The position numbers and the translations under genes are program-made. The notes under the pieces were generated by a model, which was not told the origin of the DNA, made no database searches, and saw only the letters and a list, made by a program, of their open reading frames with translations. From Acidobacteriota bacterium (GTDB lineage: Bacteria; Bacillota; Syntrophomonadia; Syntrophomonadales; DTU052): a DNA stretch of 64,000 nt. The DNA is taken from positions 11,315 to 75,314 of the forward strand of contig JBLNAX010000037.1 in NCBI GenBank assembly GCA_050259595.1. Reading direction: 5' to 3'. Positions within the stretch are counted from its first letter, which is position 1. Each line of letters opens with the position of its first letter. Below are positions 11,272 to 51,632 of this stretch, one piece after another.

Positions 11272-11970
11272 ATGAAATTTGGAGTAGTGGTTTTTCCCGG
11301 CTCCAATTGCGATGCCGACTGTTACCACGTAGTTGACGAAGTTCTTAAGGAAAAAGCTGAATATATTTGGCATAAAGACACTCATCTCAAAGGATGCGAT
11401 GCGCTGATCCTGCCGGGTGGTTTCAGCTATGGCGACTATCTGCGCTGTGGAGCTATCGCACGCTTTTCACCAATAATGCAGAAAGTAACTGAATTTGCGA
11501 ACCGCGGCGGGCTGGTGATCGGCATATGCAACGGTTTTCAAATCTTAACGGAAGCCGGTCTGCTGCCAGGGGCTTTGCTGCGCAATGACAGCCTGCAGTT
11601 CAGGTGCCTTCCGGTCAATCTCAAGGTAAAAAGCGCTGACTCGCCATTTTCCAATTTGTTCACTAAAGATGAAGTCATAATGGTGCCGGTCAATCATGGC
11701 GAAGGCAACTATTTCTGTAATGAAGAGACATTAAAGGAGCTTATTGAGTTTGACCAGATCGTATTCACCTACTGCGACAAGCAGGGCTATGAAACGGCTG
11801 AGGCCAATCCCAATGGAGCGCTGGCCAATATCGCGGGGATCGTCAATCGGCAGCGCAATGTGCTGGGCATGATGCCGCATCCCGAAAGAGTTTCGGAGGC
11901 TATCCTCGGGGGAGTCGATGGTTACCGGATCTTTGCCTCCATGATAAAACAGTTCAAGGAGGGGAGATAA
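11272..11970 (+). CDS. purQ: FGAM synthase glutaminase subunit
   Basis: [14 protein letters not shown] start, GICNGFQ nucleophile elbow and MPHPER. The track start at 11041 is an artefactual extension overlapping purS out of frame. Confidence 0.95.
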
Positions 11971-42811: not shown

Positions 42812-43135
42812 ATGGATAGGGTAGTGATGAACGGAGGAATCGCCGCCGAACCTTACCCGGTGGGGGTTGGAGAAGCTCTCCATATTCAGTATTCCGGGAT
42901 GCTATCCAGATCAGGTGCAGATAAGGTTTATCTGCGTGCGGGTTACGGCAGTAATGATTCCTGGGCAGATGTTCATGACTATGAAATGATGCCTACCGAC
43001 AATGGTTGGGAAGCCGATTTGAAGGTTCATCGGGGTGGCCGGATCCACTTCTGCTTCAGAGATCGAGCCGACAATTGGGATAACAATAATGGTCACAACT
43101 GGAACTATCCAATTGATTCTAGTCGCTTTAAATAA
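42812..43135 (+). CDS. Stand-alone CBM25/CBM53-like (starch/glycogen-binding) module protein, paralog A
   Basis: 107 aa with no signal peptide. The pattern ...V.I.YSG.L...GAD.VY...GYG....W........M....GWEA.....G...FCFRD.ADNWDNN.GHNW.Y resembles CBM25/53 (W...WDNN.G.NY). Confidence 0.65.
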   Translation: MDRVVMNGGIAAEPYPVGVGEALHIQYSGMLSRSGADKVYLRAGYGSNDSWADVHDYEMMPTDNGWEADLKVHRGGRIHFCFRDRADNWDNNNGHNWNYPIDSSRFK

Positions 43136-43158
43136 GCATATTTGAAAGGAGGGATAAC

Positions 43159-43473
43159 TTGGCCAAGGCGGAAATTGAGAGCGGTGTGATCACCACGCCG
43201 GTCCCACTTAAGAAGAATAGTACGGTTCACGTAATCTACAGCGGTATGCTGTCTGACCATGGGGCAGATCAAGTCTACATGCATAGTGGCTATGGTGCCA
43301 GTCATGATTGGTACTGGGTCAATGAACAAGCTATGGATCGCAACCGCTGGGGTTGGGAAGCTGTAGTGGATATACACGGAGATCACAGGTTCAACTTCTG
43401 TTTTAGAGACAGTGCCGACCACTGGGATAATAATAGTGGGCATAACTGGAGTTACGAGATTCAAGGGCAATAA
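43159..43473 (+). CDS. Stand-alone CBM25/CBM53-like module protein, paralog B
   Basis: 104 aa, clearly paralogous to 42812-43135 (YSGMLS..GADQVY, FCFRDSADHWDNNSGHNWSY), with a TTG start after GGAGGG. Confidence 0.65.
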   Translation: MAKAEIESGVITTPVPLKKNSTVHVIYSGMLSDHGADQVYMHSGYGASHDWYWVNEQAMDRNRWGWEAVVDIHGDHRFNFCFRDSADHWDNNSGHNWSYEIQGQ

Positions 43474-43597: not shown

Positions 43598-43628
43598 CAA
43601 AAGCTCATTCTAATGAATGAGCTTTTTA
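43598..43628 (+). terminator. Terminator, family copy A (AAAGCTCATTC/GAATGAGCTTT)
   Basis: AAAAGCTCATTC-TAAT-GAATGAGCTTTTT. The track ORF start at 43613 lies inside this hairpin. Confidence 0.8.
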
Positions 43629-43645
43629 TATTGGAGGCGTTTGTA

Positions 43646-44899
43646 TTGCGAATAGTAATGCTGGCCTGGGAGTTTCCACCTCGTATCGTTGGTGGACTTG
43701 CTATGCATGTTTATGACCTTTCGACTACGCTTGCCAGTCTGGGCCATGATGTGACGGTCATTACGTGCAACAACCATTCCTCTCCCAGTGAGGAAAAAAT
43801 GGACGGGGTCAATGTGCTGCGGGTCAATCCTTACGAGCTGCCATCGCGGGATATCGTATCCTGGGCAATGCAGCTAAATGTAGCTATGTTGGAGAAAGCA
43901 GTACAGGTCATTAACCGGGACGGTCCCTTTGATATCGTACATGCCCACGACTGGCTGACGGCTTATGCCGGGCGGGCTTTGAAACACTCTTATCAGCTGC
44001 CATTGATCGTAACCATTCATGCTACTGAGCATGGCCGTAATAATGGTATTCACAATGAAATACAGCATAATATAAGCAACATTGAGTGGTGGCTGACCTA
44101 CGAAGCCTGGAAAGTGATCTGCTGTTCGGATTACATGGTGGGGGAAGTCAGGCGAGTCTTTAACCTGCCGCATGACAAGGTCGTGCATATTCCAAATGGT
44201 GTCCACCCCGCGCGAATTCGAAATCGTCAAATGCCGGAAGGGTTTAAGGAGCGTTTTGCCCTGCCCTGGGAGCGTATCATCTACTATGTAGGGCGCTTGG
44301 TACAGGAAAAAGGGGTGCAAGTGCTGATCGATTCGGCATACAAGGTGCTGGCCCATGTGCCAGAAGCTAAATTCATAATTGCCGGGACCGGACCTTTCGA
44401 GAGCCATCTGCGCGCTAAGGCCCGCGATCTAGGTTTGGGTGACAAAATGCTGTTTACCGGGTATATCAATGATGAAGATCGAGATATGCTGTATCTGGCC
44501 GCTGATGCAGCGGTTTTTCCCAGTCTCTATGAACCGTTTGGCATAGTAGCACTGGAGGCTATGGCCGCCGGTACACCGGCAATTGTATCGGATAGTGGAG
44601 GACTCGCTGAGATCGTAAAAAACAATGTCGACGGTTTGTGGGCTATGACTGGCTCGGCCAATTCGTTGGCAGACCGCATAATCGAGGTTCTAACTAACGA
44701 TGTAATGGCGCGTAAGCTAGTCGATAATGCTTATTCAAAGGTAAAAAATCTTTATGATTGGAAGATAATAGCCCGCCACACTTTGGACATTTATAGATCA
44801 GTCGCCAAAGATTCCAAAGCCGCTGGGCGGGGCCAGGAAAGAGGCGGAACACTTTTTCAATTCAATCGTCGTCAGCGCAGTCAGGAGTTAGTTAAGTAA
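43646..44899 (+). CDS. GT4-family glycosyltransferase (glycogen-synthase-like / GlgM-like)
   Basis: MRIVMLAWEFPP.IVGGLA.HV N-terminus and EX7E (EPFGIVALE). The TTG at 43646 follows GGAGG. Confidence 0.8.
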   Translation: MRIVMLAWEFPPRIVGGLAMHVYDLSTTLASLGHDVTVITCNNHSSPSEEKMDGVNVLRVNPYELPSRDIVSWAMQLNVAMLEKAVQVINRDGPFDIVHAHDWLTAYAGRALKHSYQLPLIVTIHATEHGRNNGIHNEIQHNISNIEWWLTYEAWKVICCSDYMVGEVRRVFNLPHDKVVHIPNGVHPARIRNRQMPEGFKERFALPWERIIYYVGRLVQEKGVQVLIDSAYKVLAHVPEAKFIIAGTGPFESHLRAKARDLGLGDKMLFTGYINDEDRDMLYLAADAAVFPSLYEPFGIVALEAMAAGTPAIVSDSGGLAEIVKNNVDGLWAMTGSANSLADRIIEVLTNDVMARKLVDNAYSKVKNLYDWKIIARHTLDIYRSVAKDSKAAGRGQERGGTLFQFNRRQRSQELVK

Positions 44900-45134: not shown

Positions 45135-45938
45135 TTGAGCTATTTCAAAAAGCGGTGTTATGAAATCCTGATTTTGGATCTGCCCGGCGATGTTGTAGGC
45201 AAGATTATTGACGGCTCACTGTTGGTTTTGATCATTCTCAATGTTTTGGCTGTTATGGTCGGTACGGTAGAAGAGATCACGGTCTCGTACGGGCGGGCGT
45301 TATACATATTCGAGATATTTTCGGTGGTTATATTCACAATAGAGTACCTGCTGCGAATATGGTGCTGTACTCTAGATGAGAGGTTTTCAGGTCCTCTCAC
45401 TGGACGTATTCGCTTCTTTTTTCAGGCAATGACTCTGATCGATTTGGCAGCGATACTCCCTTTCTACCTACCAATGCTGGTAACGCTCGATACCCGGTTC
45501 TTACGCGCTTTGCGGCTTTTCCGGCTCTTCAGAGTCTTGAAAGTCGGTCGTTATTCCAACTCAGTTCGTTTGTTAGGGCTCGTGCTGAGTAAAAAACGCG
45601 AAGAATTGGTGGTCTCATTTTCGGCGGTGATGGTCATCTTGATCATCATCTCCAGTGTAATGTTTTTCTTGGAGCACGATTCCCAGCCTGATAAATTCTC
45701 CAGTATACCGGCTACGATGTGGTGGGGAGTGGCCTGCTTGACTACGGTCGGCTATGGTGATGTTTTTCCGGTAACGGTTATGGGCAGGATCTTAGGGGCA
45801 TTGGCAGCAGTGGTGGGCTTAGCCCTCTTTGCCTTGCCGACTGGAATAATTGCCGCGGCTTTCTACGAGGAACTAGAGAGTCACAAGAACCAAAGTCAGG
45901 GAACTTGTCCACATTGTGGCAAGGAAATCCAATTATAA
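45135..45938 (+). CDS. Six-TM voltage-gated-type K+ channel (Kv/KvAP-like)
   Basis: S4-like RFLRALRLFRLFRVLKVGR with Arg every third residue, the TVGYGD selectivity filter and a C-terminal CPHCG. Confidence 0.85.
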   Translation: MSYFKKRCYEILILDLPGDVVGKIIDGSLLVLIILNVLAVMVGTVEEITVSYGRALYIFEIFSVVIFTIEYLLRIWCCTLDERFSGPLTGRIRFFFQAMTLIDLAAILPFYLPMLVTLDTRFLRALRLFRLFRVLKVGRYSNSVRLLGLVLSKKREELVVSFSAVMVILIIISSVMFFLEHDSQPDKFSSIPATMWWGVACLTTVGYGDVFPVTVMGRILGALAAVVGLALFALPTGIIAAAFYEELESHKNQSQGTCPHCGKEIQL

Positions 45939-46040: not shown

Positions 46041-46111
46041 GGGTAAAAGACAAGAACCAAGCATAAGCAAACACGAGAAATGACCCCTTGTTTGCGCGAA
46101 GGAGTGATTTG

Positions 46112-48565
46112 TTGAAAGCCGTAGTAATGGCTGGCGGAGAAGGAACCCGCCTGCGCCCATTAACCTGCAACCTGCCCAAGCCTATGGTTCCAGTCTTGAG
46201 CAAACCGGTCATGGAATACAGCATCCATTTGCTCAAAAAGTACGGTATAACAGATATTGCTGCGACGTTGCAGTATTTGCCCAACGTGATCAGTGGGTAT
46301 TTCGGAAATGGTGAGGAATGGAACGTAAACATGCGTTATTTCCTAGAGGAATCTCCGCTGGGTACGGCTGGCAGCGTTAAAAATGCCGGAGAATTCCTGG
46401 ATGAAACCTTTATAGTCATCAGTGGTGATGCATTGACTGATTTTCCGTTGGATCAGGCTATTGAGTTTCACCGTTCGAAAAAGGCGCTGGCTACACTAGT
46501 CCTGACAAGGGTCGAATCACCACTCGAATACGGTTTGGTTTTGACTGATAAAGAAGGCCAGATCAATCGTTTTCTGGAAAAGCCATCATGGGGTGAAGTG
46601 TTTAGTGATACTGTAAACACAGGGATATACATTTTGGAACCTGAAGCTCTGGAGGATGTGCCCAAGGACCGGCCTTTTGATTTTTCGAGGGACTTGTTTC
46701 CCAAGTTTCTGGCCCGCAAAGACCCCATGTTTGCCGTTGTTTTGGACGGGTATTGGTGTGATATCGGAAACTGCCAACAGTATAGGCAGGTACACATAGA
46801 CATATTGAACAACATGGTGAAGATTCCGATCCAAGGAGAAAGACGGGGCAGCATTATTCGTGGCCATGGCAGCCAGATCTCACCACGGGCACGGGTGGAA
46901 GGGCCTGTTTACATCGGCCCTAATTGTGATGTTGAACCGGGTGCTCACTTGCTGGCTTACACAGTGCTGGCAGGTAATTCAATAGTTGGTCCTGGTACTT
47001 CGCTAAAAAGGTCTATAGTCTGGGGCGGAACTTGTATCGGGCGCAATTCTGAAATCAGAGGAGCTATCCTAGGGAAGGGCGTGCGAGTTCATGACCGCTG
47101 CTCAGTTTTTGAGGGAGCTGTATTGGGCGACAATAGTGTGCTGGAGGATGATGTTGTTGTTCAGCCCGAGATCAAGGTCTGGCCTTATAAGGTAGTCGAG
47201 TCAAAACGTGTGGTAACGGAAAGCCTGGTGTGGTCGGATAGACTGCCGCGCAGTATTTTTACCCAGCAGGGCATATCCGGTGATTATCATTCTCAACTCC
47301 CCCCTGAAAAGATGGCGAAATTGGGGCGTACAATGGGGACTCATCTGCATTTAGGGGCAAAGGTAGTGATTGGCTGTGATGGTTCTGCAGTCTCATTGGC
47401 TGCTAAAGAGGCACTGTTAGCAGGCTTAATATCCACCGGACTGCAGGTATACGAAGCGGGGCAGGTCCTGCTGCCCATCCTGCGTTTTGCGGTGCGGGAA
47501 ACAGAGTCGGCAATGGGGTTTCACTTGGCATTGGCTGGTACACAATTTCAAAATGTTAGTTTACGCATTGTTGGTCAGCAAGGTCTTGACCTGCTGAAAA
47601 CAGATGAACGCAAAATAGAAAATGCTTTCTACAGAGGCGAATACCGGGCGGTGAATATTGATAAAATGCACATGCCGGAGCGAATTGCTGACCTGGACTC
47701 TGCCTATATCAGTGATATCTTGGAGGACATTGATCAGTTGGCCATCAATACCCGACGTTTTCGCATTGTTCTAGGGGCGGAGCTGCCGGGGATCTCAAAT
47801 ATCGCTGCGCGGATTTTGGATCGTCTGGGATGTGACATAGTTCGGGTAGATGGTTTTGAAGTTTCTGTTAACGGCATCTATGACCGTGAAGAGGTATTGA
47901 ACAATGTTTCGCAGACCACAGTGAGGCATGGCGCGGAAATAGGAGTTTTTCTGGAGGATGGTGGCCAGAAAGTGGTATTCACCGCGTCGGATGGCACGGT
48001 CATTGAGGATGAGAAATTCACTGCATTGATTTCTGGAACCCTTGGAACCTGTTTTGGCAAAGTGTTCCTGCCTGTCTATGTGCCAGTTTCTATCGAAGAT
48101 TATCTTCGCCGTCAGGGCCGAAAAGTGGTGCGAACAAGAGCCTTTTTCGGTGAGTTTATGCAGGAAATGATCAGGGAAGGAGAAGCTGAGCAGCTGCGCC
48201 TCTATGCTGACGGTTTGTTCGCTACTCTGAAACTACTTGAATTTATGGCCCGGCATGACTATAGTTTTGTAGATCTATTGGAAAACATGCCTTCCTTTAA
48301 CTATATCAAAAGGGAGGTGCCTGTATCATGGGAGGACAAAGGACGGGTAATACGGCGCTTAGCCGAGGAGAATGTTCAATATGGGAGTGAACAGTCGTTA
48401 GGGGGGATCCGCATGAATCATGACAACGGTATCGGACTAATTCTTCCTGATGAAGACCGTCCCGTGTGTCGTATCTATGCTGAAGCGTTTTCAATGGAAA
48501 TGGCTGAATCACTGGCCGATTTCTATCACCAAAAAATCGAGAATATTTGCCAGGAACTGAGCTAG
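46112..48565 (+). CDS. Sugar-1-phosphate nucleotidyltransferase + left-handed beta-helix + degenerate PGM/PMM-like domain
   Basis: N-terminal MAGGEGTRLRPLT...PKPM signature, then hexapeptide-repeat region. The C-terminal four-domain PGM/PMM-like region has all catalytic loops altered. The TTG at 46112 follows AAGGAG. Confidence 0.85.
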   Translation: MKAVVMAGGEGTRLRPLTCNLPKPMVPVLSKPVMEYSIHLLKKYGITDIAATLQYLPNVISGYFGNGEEWNVNMRYFLEESPLGTAGSVKNAGEFLDETFIVISGDALTDFPLDQAIEFHRSKKALATLVLTRVESPLEYGLVLTDKEGQINRFLEKPSWGEVFSDTVNTGIYILEPEALEDVPKDRPFDFSRDLFPKFLARKDPMFAVVLDGYWCDIGNCQQYRQVHIDILNNMVKIPIQGERRGSIIRGHGSQISPRARVEGPVYIGPNCDVEPGAHLLAYTVLAGNSIVGPGTSLKRSIVWGGTCIGRNSEIRGAILGKGVRVHDRCSVFEGAVLGDNSVLEDDVVVQPEIKVWPYKVVESKRVVTESLVWSDRLPRSIFTQQGISGDYHSQLPPEKMAKLGRTMGTHLHLGAKVVIGCDGSAVSLAAKEALLAGLISTGLQVYEAGQVLLPILRFAVRETESAMGFHLALAGTQFQNVSLRIVGQQGLDLLKTDERKIENAFYRGEYRAVNIDKMHMPERIADLDSAYISDILEDIDQLAINTRRFRIVLGAELPGISNIAARILDRLGCDIVRVDGFEVSVNGIYDREEVLNNVSQTTVRHGAEIGVFLEDGGQKVVFTASDGTVIEDEKFTALISGTLGTCFGKVFLPVYVPVSIEDYLRRQGRKVVRTRAFFGEFMQEMIREGEAEQLRLYADGLFATLKLLEFMARHDYSFVDLLENMPSFNYIKREVPVSWEDKGRVIRRLAEENVQYGSEQSLGGIRMNHDNGIGLILPDEDRPVCRIYAEAFSMEMAESLADFYHQKIENICQELS

Positions 48566-48639: not shown

Positions 48640-49650
48640 ATGCCGGAACTACGGCAGGATCCATTGAGTCATCGATGGGTAGTAATATCGATGGAACGGG
48701 CTAAACGGCCCCATGATTTTAAGCCTAAAAGTCTGGAAAGTCATTCAGGCAACTGTGTTTTCTGTGAAGGAAACGAAGAAAAAACGCCCCCGGAAATATA
48801 TTCCTTCCGTGATTCAGGAAGTGGTATAAATACCCCGGGCTGGTGGGTCAGGACTGTTCCCAATAAGTTCCCTGCCCTGGCCATTGAAGGCTCAGTGCAT
48901 GAGTCGGTTCATGGCCTAAATAAGGCTATAAACGGGGTGGGTGCTCATGAGGTCATAATTGAAAGTCCTGAACACCGGATAGCATTTTTCAAACATCCTA
49001 TCCAGCAGGTTGAAGAGGTAATTAGGATGTGGCGGGATCGTCATCTGGACCTGCGTAAAGATCATCGCTTGAAATATGTTTTGGTATTCAAAAATGAAGG
49101 TCCGGAGGCTGGTGCTTCCTTAGAACACAGCCACAGCCAGCTAATGGCTTTGCCCATGGTGCCTAAGTCGATCGAGGATGAGATCAATATTGGTTTCCGG
49201 CAGCATGCGCAGGCTACCGGTCGCTGCATTTGCTGTGACATGGTGGGGCAGGAAGTAACCGATGGCAGTCGTGTAGCCATGGAAACCGAAAAGTTTGTCG
49301 CCTTTTGCCCTTTTGCTTCGCGCTTTCCCTTTGAAACCTGGATCGTTCCGAAACAGCATGAATCAGATTTTGGTTTGATCAAAGATGACGATGTGGGCGA
49401 GCTGGCCTGGATATTGCGCGAGTCATTGTGCCGGCTGTCCGATGTACTGGGAAATCCACCTTACAATATGCTTCTCCACTCAACTCCGGTCAATGTGGAT
49501 ATCGGTGTATCATACCACTGGCATATCGAAATATTGCCTAGATTGACAACTGCTGCTGGTTTTGAGTATGGAACAGAATACTATATCAATCCGACTCCGC
49601 CGGAAATTGCAGCCGAGTCCTTGCGGGCTGGCTCATGTCATGCACACTAA
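48640..49650 (+). CDS. GalT-family (HIT branch III) nucleotidyltransferase/phosphorylase
   Basis: R.DPL..RWV.IS..R..RP, the CVFCEGNE zinc motif and the HSHSQ (HxHxQ) active site. The ATG at 48640 follows GGAGG. Confidence 0.85.
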   Translation: MPELRQDPLSHRWVVISMERAKRPHDFKPKSLESHSGNCVFCEGNEEKTPPEIYSFRDSGSGINTPGWWVRTVPNKFPALAIEGSVHESVHGLNKAINGVGAHEVIIESPEHRIAFFKHPIQQVEEVIRMWRDRHLDLRKDHRLKYVLVFKNEGPEAGASLEHSHSQLMALPMVPKSIEDEINIGFRQHAQATGRCICCDMVGQEVTDGSRVAMETEKFVAFCPFASRFPFETWIVPKQHESDFGLIKDDDVGELAWILRESLCRLSDVLGNPPYNMLLHSTPVNVDIGVSYHWHIEILPRLTTAAGFEYGTEYYINPTPPEIAAESLRAGSCHAH

Positions 49651-49667
49651 GTGAAAGGAGTGAGGCA

Positions 49668-51122
49668 ATGAGAATCTTGATAGCATCCTCCGAAGTTGCC
49701 CCCTTTGCTAAAACCGGAGGTCTGGCCGATGTTGCAGGCTCGCTGCCCAAGGCATTAAAGAAGCTAGGCCATGACGTCAGAGTGGTCATGCCCTGTTACA
49801 AACAGATAAATGCAGGAAGATACCTGACTGATCTGCCGGTGCCGATGGATGGACACCTTGAAACAGCTATTGTCAGGCAGACCGAGCTAAAGATGGAACA
49901 AGAAGAAGTGCCGGTTTATCTAATTGACAACTACAAATATTTCTACCGTGACAAGATGTATGGTTTTATTGATGAAGCTGACCGATTTAATTTCTTCACC
50001 AAGTCGGTTCTGGCCATGCTGCCGTATTTAGGATTTCAGCCGGATGTCATCCATTGCAATGACTGGCATACCGCACTGCTGCCGTTATTTCTTAAAGTCA
50101 AATTCATGGAGGAACCGTTTTATCAAAAGATCGGTACTGTCTTTACTGTTCACAACCTACAGTACCAGGGCCGTTTTCCCAAGACCATTTTAAAGAACCT
50201 AGGATTAGATGACTACTTCTTTACCCCCGAAGAATTAGAGTTTTTCGGCGAAGTAAACTTCATGAAAGCAGGACTGCTTTATTCTGACGTTCTGAATACT
50301 GTCAGCCAGAAATATGCTATGGAGATCCAGACCACTGAATTAGGTGAAGGCTTGGATGGTTTGCTTAGAAAGCGTTCTATGGACCTTTTTGGAATCTTGA
50401 ACGGCCTCGATTACGATGAAATCGATCCGGCTTCGGATAACAAGATTTATGTTCAATATGACATTCATTCACTGGAAAAAAAGAAGGAAAATAAGTATCA
50501 ACTGCAAAAAGAACTAGGTCTGGCAATGGGTGACGTGCCAATGGTGGGGTTGATTACCCGTTTAGTTTCCCAGAAAGGTCTAGACCTAATCTCGGCGGTT
50601 ATCGATGATATCATGCGCATGGGCATCCAGCTGGTTTTGTTGGGAACCGGTGAGGATTATTACGAAAAACTCTTTGCTGACGTCAAAATGCGTTTTCCGA
50701 ATCATACCTCCATAAATCTGGGGTTTGATCCTGTTTTGGCTCAGAAGATTTATGCTGGTTCTGACATTTTCCTTATGCCGTCAAGGTTTGAACCTTGTGG
50801 TCTCGGGCAGCTGATATCACTTCGTTACGGGACCATACCGGTAGTCCGCAAAACCGGCGGATTGTGGGACACAATCAAAAATTACGATAAAGATACCGGA
50901 TATGGCAATGGATTTACCTTTGAAGATTATAAACCTGAAAAACTCTTGGATGCGTTAAGCCGCGCAGTACGGCTCTATCAGGAAAATCAGGAGGCCTGGG
51001 GCAAGCTTATGCACATGGCCATGAGCATGGACTTTTCCTGGAACCGTTCGGCCATCAAGTATTTGGAACTCTACGAAAAAGCGGTAAAAAAACGAAAGAA
51101 CAAAATCAACCGGGCTGTCTAA
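49668..51122 (+). CDS. glgA: Glycogen/starch synthase (GT5)
   Basis: MRILIASSEVAPFAKTGGLADV N-terminus, followed by the PSRFEPCGL and GGL.DT motifs. Confidence 0.95.
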   Translation: MRILIASSEVAPFAKTGGLADVAGSLPKALKKLGHDVRVVMPCYKQINAGRYLTDLPVPMDGHLETAIVRQTELKMEQEEVPVYLIDNYKYFYRDKMYGFIDEADRFNFFTKSVLAMLPYLGFQPDVIHCNDWHTALLPLFLKVKFMEEPFYQKIGTVFTVHNLQYQGRFPKTILKNLGLDDYFFTPEELEFFGEVNFMKAGLLYSDVLNTVSQKYAMEIQTTELGEGLDGLLRKRSMDLFGILNGLDYDEIDPASDNKIYVQYDIHSLEKKKENKYQLQKELGLAMGDVPMVGLITRLVSQKGLDLISAVIDDIMRMGIQLVLLGTGEDYYEKLFADVKMRFPNHTSINLGFDPVLAQKIYAGSDIFLMPSRFEPCGLGQLISLRYGTIPVVRKTGGLWDTIKNYDKDTGYGNGFTFEDYKPEKLLDALSRAVRLYQENQEAWGKLMHMAMSMDFSWNRSAIKYLELYEKAVKKRKNKINRAV

Positions 51123-51220
51123 AAACGAGTCCAGCCGGGACAAAAAGTGGTTTCAAAATGACCGGAGCTTGTGGTAATATATGATAACCGGGGAAACACC
51201 GAAGATTGAGGGGGGAGGCA

Positions 51221-51610
51221 ATGAAGGTCAAGGAAGCCATGCATGCTCCTGTAATTACGGTTACACCGCACAACTCGCTACAGGAAACTCTAGAGATCAT
51301 GAGAGACAACAATTTGCGCAGGCTGCCGGTTTTAGAGGGTGAAGAGCTCGTAGGCATCATCGTCCAACACGATATCGAAAAAGCGTTGCGTCGTCCAGGA
51401 ACGATCTATGAGTCACCGGTGGATTGGGTGATGACGAAGAAACCGGTTTATTCAATCGAGCCTGAGGCAAGTATTGTTGAAGCGGCACGCATGATGAAAG
51501 ATTTGAAAATAAGTGCGATACCAGTCGTAGAAGCAGAAAAACTAGTAGGAATAATATCCGACACAGATATCTTGGAAATCTTCATAGATGTTATGCAACG
51601 GGATAATTAA
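51221..51610 (+). CDS. CBS-pair domain protein
   Basis: Two CBS repeats (RRLPV......GIIV..DI and ISAIPVV......GIIS.TDI). The ATG at 51221 follows GGGGGAGG. Confidence 0.8.
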   Translation: MKVKEAMHAPVITVTPHNSLQETLEIMRDNNLRRLPVLEGEELVGIIVQHDIEKALRRPGTIYESPVDWVMTKKPVYSIEPEASIVEAARMMKDLKISAIPVVEAEKLVGIISDTDILEIFIDVMQRDN

Positions 51611-51632
51611 ATATCCCGTTTGTTCTTTTTTT
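51598..51632 (+). terminator. Rho-independent terminator of the glgA/CBS unit
   Basis: ACGGGATA-ATTAAA-TATCCCGT (the stop codon is in the loop) followed by TTGTTCTTTTTTT. Confidence 0.8.

Follow-up and report, generated by a model that had tools for sequence, protein, structure and literature searches.

Introduction

In the textbook scheme of bacterial glycogen metabolism, GlgC performs the activation step, GlgA polymerises and GlgP phosphorolyses the polymer, the GlgE route being a known alternative. The classical GlgC-GlgA-GlgP module is built on a GT5-type GlgA core and links glucose-1-phosphate (Glc-1-P) to the polymer through adenosine diphosphate (ADP)-glucose. Here we describe a locus which shares this core but departs from the scheme: GlgC and GT35 phosphorylases were not found in the host genome, and an enzyme of the GalT family is encoded instead beside a GlgA of a sister clade, where it may provide a phosphorolytic exit for ADP-glucose. 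The locus was analysed within a stretch of 64,000 nucleotides (nt), called here the window, corresponding to positions 11,315 to 75,314 of contig JBLNAX010000037.1 of the assembly GCA_050259595.1, deposited as Acidobacteriota bacterium and placed by GTDB in the Bacillota (Syntrophomonadia; Syntrophomonadales; DTU052).

The closest described relative of this GalT-like protein is the plant protein At5g18200 (EC 2.7.7.36; PDB 1Z84, 1ZWJ and 2H39), an ADP-glucose phosphorylase devoid of galactose-1-phosphate uridylyltransferase (GalT) activity (PMC6329318), an identity also given in bioRxiv 10.64898/2026.09.13.751320. The plant enzyme is phosphorolytic and has a Michaelis constant (Km) of ~7 µM for ADP-glucose (PMC4136846). 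The two proteins have in common the HSHSQ motif, the Cys-x-x-Cys pairs of both halves, the length class and presumably the same ping-pong mechanism through a His-AMP intermediate. At5g18200 is a stand-alone, cytosolic protein of unsettled physiological role (PMC4136846, PMC6329318), whereas the bacterial protein lies next to or is fused with a glycogen synthase and, in the phylum of the window, occurs where glgC and GT35 were not found. Class I GalTs (E. coli, 1HXP; P. aerophilum, 6K5Z) belong to the same superfamily branch and share the HxHxQ motif, a Cys-x-x-Cys metal site and a similar size; they differ by the HPHGQ version of the motif in Escherichia coli, by a low identity (28% for E. coli) and by the galK/galE context, which the window protein does not have. 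Finally, a possible functional analogy exists with the E. coli NUDIX ADP-sugar pyrophosphatase AspP, which restrains glycogen synthesis by removing ADP-glucose (PMC4136846). AspP has an unrelated fold, is not encoded beside glgA and yields AMP and Glc-1-P so that the phosphoanhydride bond is wasted, whereas the window enzyme would conserve this bond as ADP.

The enzyme family is known from this one plant protein. Our literature search found no paper on a bacterial glgA-linked GalT-like member, on its fusions, or on a GlgA system around it lacking both glgC and GlgP, and a review on the alpha-glucan enzymes of prokaryotes (Chem Rev, 2024) makes, in the portion covered, no mention of GalT or HIT enzymes. 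A Pseudomonas literature match for "ADP-glucose phosphorylase" was discarded, the term being a slip for pyrophosphorylase.

Results

A predicted At5g18200-type protein is encoded upstream of glgA

The central part of the locus comprises the following genes and motifs, with lengths in amino acids (aa).

46088..48565, + strand: sugar-1-phosphate nucleotidyltransferase with a left-handed beta-helix and a catalytically degenerate phosphohexomutase-like domain, 825 aa (Pfam NTP_transferase 185 bits, PGM_PMM_I 57 bits)
48640..49650, + strand: GalT-family HIT protein of the At5g18200 type, 336 aa (Pfam PF01087 and PF02744; best PDB phmmer match 1Z84/2H39)
48754..48777, + strand: CVFCEGNE, aa 39-46, first metal-site Cys-x-x-Cys (C39, C42); C39, C42, H103 and H163 invariant
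49126..49140, + strand: HSHSQ active-site motif, aa 163-167, with His165 as the predicted nucleotidylated nucleophile; H163, H165 and Q167 invariant
49225..49236, + strand: CICC, with C196 and C199 as the second Cys-x-x-Cys, located in the C-terminal HIT-like half; C196, C199, H240 and H293 invariant
49668..51122, + strand: glycogen synthase GlgA (GT5), 484 aa (TIGR02095 559 bits, cut-off 328)

An initial annotation of this DNA had drawn attention to a 336-aa open reading frame (ORF) with CVFCEGNE and HSHSQ motifs, located 17 nt upstream of glgA and downstream of a nucleotidyltransferase gene, and had contrasted its active site with the HPHGQ of E. coli GalT. Each of these elements was recovered. 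The ORF extends from an ATG at 48640 to a stop codon ending at 49650 and is preceded by a GGAGG sequence ~11 nt 5' of the start; the ATG of glgA at 49668 follows 17 nt past its stop codon, the nucleotidyltransferase gene ends 74 nt upstream, and HPHGQ occupies residues 164-168 of the GalT of E. coli K-12 MG1655.

To place the protein within the GalT/HIT family, its scores against solved structures were ranked. The phmmer search of the PDB gave a full-length match (residues 2-330) to At5g18200 (1Z84/2H39) with 235 bits (E 1e-68), compared to 132 bits for the P. aerophilum GalT (6K5Z), 106 bits for the E. coli GalT (1HXP) and 61 bits for human GALT. The identity to At5g18200 is only ~45-50%; nevertheless, the active-site stretch FKNEGPEAGASLEHSHSQLMALP is nearly identical to its plant counterpart FKNQGASAGASMSHSHSQMMALP, the HSHSQ motif included, and the second C-x-x-C (CICC) aligns with a C-x-x-C of the plant protein. 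Alignments with 14 and 10 relatives show no substitution at C39, C42, H103, H163, H165, Q167, C196, C199, H240 or H293. By homology to GalT structures, we take C39, C42, H103 and H163 to be zinc ligands, and both HIT-like halves are predicted to carry Cys-x-x-Cys plus His metal sites. These comparisons agree with the initial suggestion of an ADP-glucose phosphorylase-type enzyme, and the window gene very probably encodes a member of the At5g18200 branch rather than a Leloir GalT.

By contrast, automatic annotation would make this protein an ordinary Leloir GalT (UDP-glucose:galactose-1-phosphate uridylyltransferase), and every named homologue in the databases bears the galactose-1-phosphate uridylyltransferase label. 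This naming arises because the loose model TIGR00209 (galT_1) is passed, with 122.8 bits for a cut-off of 102.1, although the equivalog PRK11720 is failed by far (143.9 bits, cut-off 448). Besides this failure and the score for a plant enzyme without GalT activity, which is more than twice that for E. coli GalT, the genomic context argues against such a function. No gal gene lies within the window, as the initial annotation had stated, and galK had no match in the whole genome (3.58 Mb, 112 contigs, 98.7% complete), in which the best galE match reached 193 bits for a cut-off of 262 and galU had no match over the model cut-off. A Leloir pathway elsewhere in the genome without its own galT, the case that the initial annotation had held against its proposal, was thus not detectable genome-wide. 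Moreover, the neighbours and fusion partners of the GalT-like genes are glucan enzymes (see below). A Leloir function is extremely unlikely on these grounds, and the name galactose-1-phosphate uridylyltransferase is probably wrong for thousands of database entries.

The host genome encodes a second GalT-like paralogue of 333 aa, 44% identical to the first, with an HSHTQ motif (contig C33, locus L003:4178-5179, + strand). It is preceded by two cNMP-binding/DUF2225 genes and by a gene for a CHASE2 adenylate/guanylate cyclase, with no glucan genes nearby. In relatives of the same order (family f2), only a weaker GalT-like match was found, together with no glgA, glgC or GT35; the C33 paralogue may therefore represent a distinct, GlgA-independent subfamily.

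The GalT-like gene adjoins glgA in several phyla and is repeatedly fused to it

Conservation of the gene pair was analysed in 251 genomes sampled evenly from the window's phylum, taking a match of at least 285 bits as a strong homologue; the genome counts given here and below are not phylogenetically independent. A strong GalT-like homologue was present in 48 genomes and, in 43 of them, touched a gene for a TIGR02095-passing GlgA on the same strand. The GalT-like gene mostly precedes glgA; the order is reversed in four genomes, and in one genome both parts form a single frame of 847 aa. A neighbourhood survey of 80 related loci from species-representative genomes showed GlgA to follow on the same strand, its start lying ~10-320 nt downstream, in Pelotomaculum, Desulfotomaculum, Desulfovirgula and a Peptococcaceae metagenome-assembled genome, and likewise in members of the Planctomycetota, Nitrospirota, Nitrospinota, Thermodesulfobacteriota, Zixibacteria and Bacteroidota. 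The GalT-like loci of Acidobacteriota, which form one clade on the GalT-like tree, have housekeeping neighbours (UPF0102, aminotransferase, CysRS, Hsp70).

The two proteins also occur as single polypeptides. GlgA-GalT-like fusions make up six clusters (791-832 aa), and the opposite arrangement, GalT-like-GlgA, is known from Phosphitispora sp. TUW77, whose complete genome contains an 834-aa gene of this kind. A further ~37 clusters are GH57-GalT-like fusions. On the GalT-like tree, the GlgA fusions have at least three origins and so do the GH57 fusions. The tight linkage to glgA reported by the initial annotation thus extends to 43 of 48 phylum genomes, at least six other phyla and gene fusions. 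The juxtaposition of the two genes is far beyond chance, and a functional coupling of the GalT-like enzyme to GlgA is highly probable. It should be noted that a complex prediction for GlgA and the GalT-like protein, made with a 10-row alignment for each, gave a score of 0.00, which speaks neither for nor against binding.

Regarding the GH57-GalT-like fusions, they are metagenomic proteins of 590-1080 aa with the GalT-like domain at the C-terminus (P0279-P0312, P0141, P0180, P0272, P0273). Their GH57 part has no close relative in the host genome and no good match to an NCBIfam branching-enzyme model, and no other glucan genes were present in the two fusion neighbourhoods inspected. Tandem GalT-like units were also observed within one chain (P0121, P0271, P0122), the first unit being more diverged (30-34% identity).

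The pair and glgC are nearly mutually exclusive within the phylum

To examine how the pair relates to the classical glycogen genes, the 46 phylum genomes carrying it, the window's genome included, were compared with the 76 other glgA genomes. A glgC gene was detected in only one pair genome, where a second GlgA adjoins it, as against 64 of the 76 others. The pair occurs in 18 families and glgC in 34, a single family being shared. Similarly, a GT35 phosphorylase, classical or distant, was found in 10 of the 46 pair genomes compared to 58 of the 64 genomes with glgA and glgC but without the pair. Twelve of the 76 genomes carry glgA but neither glgC nor the GalT-like gene.

In the host genome, the best match to canonical glgC (TIGR02091) reached 125 bits for a cut-off of 424.9 and corresponds to a paralogue of the nucleotidyltransferase fusion. 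No GT35 phosphorylase was found there, either by Pfam or by tblastn with the distant Pelotomaculum GT35, and no GH13 branching enzyme; the genome encodes two GH57 branching-enzyme-like genes, a GH15 enzyme and three stand-alone phosphohexomutases. In many phylum genomes, with or without glgA, proteins of ~540-620 aa match GT35 over Pfam positions ~415-583 only (48-65 bits); none of these partial matches occurs in the host genome.

The window GlgA passes TIGR02095 and displays in its translation AKTGGLADV, with the N-terminal K-T-G-G-L donor loop. In a tree of 54 GlgA proteins, it falls in a clade of 24 rows (SH-aLRT 99) that is sister to the 16-row clade of glgC-adjacent GlgAs (support 100). 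The 24-row clade holds all GlgAs adjacent to a GalT-like gene, the second GlgA copies of family f16, the GlgAs of the genomes with neither enzyme, and those of family f34, which adjoin the nucleotidyltransferase fusion without a GalT-like gene. This split into two clades indicates that the phylum harbours two glycogen-synthase systems, the classical GlgC/GlgA/GlgP system and a second one to which the window locus belongs.

Family f16 (G065, G155, G195, G231, G264, G294; L116:8001-14435) has two GlgA genes located 2-6 kb apart, one beside or fused to the GalT-like gene and the other forming its own subclade. A classical GT35 is present in this family, without glgC.

The situation is different outside the phylum. 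Among 50 genomes with a close homologue of the GalT-like protein, 35 have a glgC over the cut-off and 37 a GT35 match, most of them having a single GlgA. This sole GlgA is the one adjoining the GalT-like gene in Planctomycetota, Nitrospirota, Nitrospinota and Thermodesulfobacteriota, where glgC is kept, and at two loci glgC lies a few kb from the pair on the same contig. Because of this coexistence, the GalT-like enzyme is compatible with GlgC and is not a universal substitute for it.

These data bear on the route around GlgC which the initial annotation had envisaged. In this scheme, the enzyme would make ADP-glucose from Glc-1-P and ADP with release of inorganic phosphate (Pi), the donor being passed to GlgA and the resulting ADP re-used; in a variant that we add here, it would act as an ATP-using, HIT-type analogue of GlgC releasing pyrophosphate (PPi). 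The near mutual exclusion within the phylum, at the level of genomes and of families, is in line with this part of the proposal. So is the position of the GalT-like gene, which holds the glgA-side slot that glgC has in classical clusters, and GlgA fusions in both domain orders suit consecutive steps sharing ADP and ADP-glucose. In addition, two pair genomes (G064, G079) had no match to the nucleotidyltransferase fusion that could otherwise supply the donor. The proposal does not hold as a general route, however, given the phyla in which the pair adjoins the only GlgA of glgC-bearing genomes. Furthermore, the 12 genomes with neither enzyme and family f34, which has the same GlgA clade without a GalT-like gene, show that GlgA does not need the GalT-like enzyme, and the equilibrium favours ADP and Glc-1-P. 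Overall, we regard a replacement of GlgC as rather unlikely.

The upstream nucleotidyltransferase fusion is a candidate source of the donor

The 825-aa protein encoded upstream of the GalT-like gene is not a canonical GlgC, as it scores 101 bits with the glgC model (cut-off 424.9). Its N-terminal part is closest to the solved UTP-glucose-1-phosphate uridylyltransferase 8x7s (220 bits), with GDP-mannose pyrophosphorylases also near; the PDB code 8X7S gave no hit in a literature search. In the mutase-like half (aa 385-825), the catalytic Ser, Mg and phosphate-binding loops are all lost: compared to PDB 9du5, ASHNP is replaced by LAGTQ, DGDADR by EDGGQK and SGTEP by DEDRP. This degenerate domain is probably a sensor or a scaffold, and the whole fusion is a candidate maker of the nucleoside diphosphate (NDP)-glucose donor.

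Of the 46 pair genomes, 44 carry the fusion, as do 10 of the 12 genomes whose glgA is accompanied by neither glgC nor a GalT-like gene; in family f34, moreover, the fusion adjoins GlgA, which supports a supply of donor by the nucleotidyltransferase. It is nevertheless widespread rather than pair-specific: full-length relatives are present in more than 100 of the 251 phylum genomes, including ~25 glgC genomes and many genomes without glgA. We also considered the fusion as the sole reason for the missing glgC and rejected this explanation in view of the same glgC-bearing and glgA-less genomes.

Two other readings involve this gene. According to the first, the GalT-like enzyme would do no more than drain, at high Pi, the ADP-glucose that the nucleotidyltransferase produces, in replacement of the allosteric control of GlgC; the resulting cycle, ATP + Pi -> ADP + PPi, would run without net energy loss in an anaerobe that uses PPi. 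Such a role would fit the enzyme type, which is phosphorolytic with a low Km (PMC4136846), and the gene order, since the nucleotidyltransferase gene is directly upstream here and several families (G052, G081, G168, G207, G153, G193, G111, G229, G271, G123) have it within 2-11 kb. The coexistence of the pair with glgC in other phyla is likewise compatible with it. It leaves unexplained, however, why the ties and repeated fusions are to GlgA and GH57 rather than to the nucleotidyltransferase, as well as the scarcity of GT35 in pair genomes, and it appears improbable to us.

The second reading concerns the substrate. The enzyme could be a phosphorylase or transferase of UDP-, GDP- or another NDP-hexose, serving a GlgA clade that might not use ADP-glucose. 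The solved enzymes nearest to the N-terminal domain of the nucleotidyltransferase would agree with this, as would the separation of the pair GlgAs from the glgC-linked ones and the limited overall identity to the plant enzyme. By contrast, the active-site stretch is close to that of the ADP-glucose enzyme, the GlgA passes with 559 bits the ADP-glucose-type model TIGR02095 and, outside the phylum, GlgC, a maker of ADP-glucose, serves the very GlgA that is partnered with the enzyme. A different substrate is accordingly judged quite improbable, slightly more so than a mere drain of the pool.

Other genes of the cluster and a second glucan locus

The remaining features of the gene string are listed below.

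42812-43473, + strand: two small ORFs of 107 and 104 aa at the head of the cluster
43613..44899, + strand: GT4/GT5-like glucosyltransferase, 428 aa, head of the glucan cluster (Pfam Glycos_transf_1 156 bits, Glyco_transf_5 82 bits; TIGR02149 glgA_Coryne 156 bits, under its cut-off)
45135..45938, + strand: voltage-gated-type K+ channel, 267 aa (Ion_trans 114 bits), between the GT4 gene and the nucleotidyltransferase gene
51158-51185: promoter-like site before the CBS gene
51221..51610, + strand: CBS-pair protein of 129 aa, stand-alone (two stretches matching Pfam CBS, 104 bits)
51597..51620, + strand: terminator-like hairpin at the end of the gene string (stem of 9 bp, then a T-run)

No second terminator-like site was found outside coding sequence on the + strand between 46088 and 51597. 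For this reason, the nucleotidyltransferase, GalT-like, glgA and CBS genes may form a single transcript ending at the hairpin, despite the promoter-like site before the CBS gene.

The CBS protein, the K+ channel and the GT4 protein were examined as conserved partners and rejected, as none of their genes recurs beside the pair in the 80 related loci; a CBS homologue lies within 10 kb in one of them. The CBS gene is thus not kept beside the pair, and the control of the enzyme by an adenylate-sensing CBS protein put forward by the initial annotation is pure speculation.

A second glucan cluster is present on contig C18 of the host genome (locus L032:7116-16091, + strand). It encodes a GT4 glucosyltransferase (391 aa), an 854-aa paralogue of the nucleotidyltransferase/mutase-like fusion, a GH57 branching enzyme (520 aa), a GH57-like protein (819 aa) and a methyltransferase (401 aa). 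The set of GT4, GH57 and methyltransferase genes resembles the mycobacterial methylglucose-lipopolysaccharide genes Rv3030-Rv3032.

Discussion

The interpretation that we favour, with modest confidence in the whole of it, is that the nucleotidyltransferase supplies the donor and that the GalT-like enzyme is a phosphorolytic exit coupled to GlgA. By analogy with the characterised plant enzyme, it would catalyse the reaction ADP-glucose + Pi <-> ADP + Glc-1-P (EC 2.7.7.36) by a ping-pong mechanism in which the AMP moiety of ADP-glucose is carried by His165 and transferred reversibly to phosphate. Glucan synthesis would be driven by NDP-glucose from the upstream nucleotidyltransferase, whereas the GalT-like enzyme would convert ADP-glucose to Glc-1-P in a phosphate-dependent and energy-conserving manner. 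In this way, the level of ADP-glucose would be set by mass action, the donor pool of the adjacent GlgA being tied to the ratio [Glc-1-P][ADP]/[Pi]. The exit would also cover the ADP-glucose formed by reversal of GlgA on glycogen and ADP, so that GlgA and the GalT-like enzyme together would do the job of a glycogen phosphorylase.

The energetics of the two reactions can be summarised as follows. The equilibrium constant of ADP-glucose phosphorolysis, from the plant enzyme, favours ADP and Glc-1-P ~5- to 40-fold, and the GlgA reaction favours the polymer ~50- to 150-fold. Their sum is the glycogen phosphorylase reaction, for which the Pi/Glc-1-P ratio is ~3.6, net synthesis being possible only below this value. 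From established thermodynamics, an ATP-free synthesis of the donor from ADP and Glc-1-P is disfavoured by the equilibrium except at a high Glc-1-P/Pi ratio. GlgA and the GalT-like enzyme would thus carry flux both ways, and at ordinary Pi the net direction would be mobilisation; the opposite flux, from Glc-1-P and ADP to ADP-glucose, is chemically possible but would lead to net synthesis only if Glc-1-P/Pi were unusually high. Taken on its own, the phosphorolytic direction of the GalT-like enzyme is proposed tentatively. At sub-millimolar ADP, reversal of GlgA would yield only micromolar ADP-glucose, within the Km range of the plant enzyme, and the proximity or fusion of both enzymes would therefore be advantageous.

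Several points weigh against this interpretation. Activity, nucleotide specificity and direction cannot be read from a sequence. The near-exclusion with glgC in the phylum fits equally well an enzyme that makes the donor, and the coexistence of the pair with glgC and GT35 elsewhere means that the replacement pattern is lineage-specific and may reflect few evolutionary events. The fusion of an ADP-glucose consumer to an ADP-glucose user is surprising, except if it serves GlgA reversal or ADP recycling. The role of the nucleotidyltransferase fusion as donor maker is putative, given its presence in genomes that bear glgC or have no glgA. Finally, glycogen could be broken down by hydrolysis through the GH15 and GH57 enzymes encoded elsewhere in the genome, leaving no need for a phosphorolytic bypass.

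A bolder version of the coupling deserves mention. GlgA and the GalT-like enzyme might constitute a two-enzyme, ADP-cycling, reversible glucan synthase/phosphorylase performing glucan(n) + Glc-1-P <-> glucan(n+1) + Pi, with bound ADP/ADP-glucose acting as a shuttle, which would replace both GlgC and GT35 in a large part of the phylum, comprising no fewer than 18 families, with Pelotomaculum, Desulfotomaculum, Phosphitispora and the present organism among their members. We consider this version possible but doubtful. If it is true, the repeated fusions to GlgA and GH57 would serve to channel micromolar ADP-glucose.

In a wide set of the sampled anaerobes, GlgA is kept, glgC and mostly GlgP were not found, and the GalT-like enzyme always adjoins GlgA. 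Should the pair establish an ATP-free link between Glc-1-P and the polymer, or permit mobilisation by reversal of GlgA, this would represent a new, energy-thrifty mode of storage-glucan turnover, of relevance for organisms that live close to the thermodynamic limit, and would provide a physiological role for ADP-glucose phosphorylase, the plant one included.

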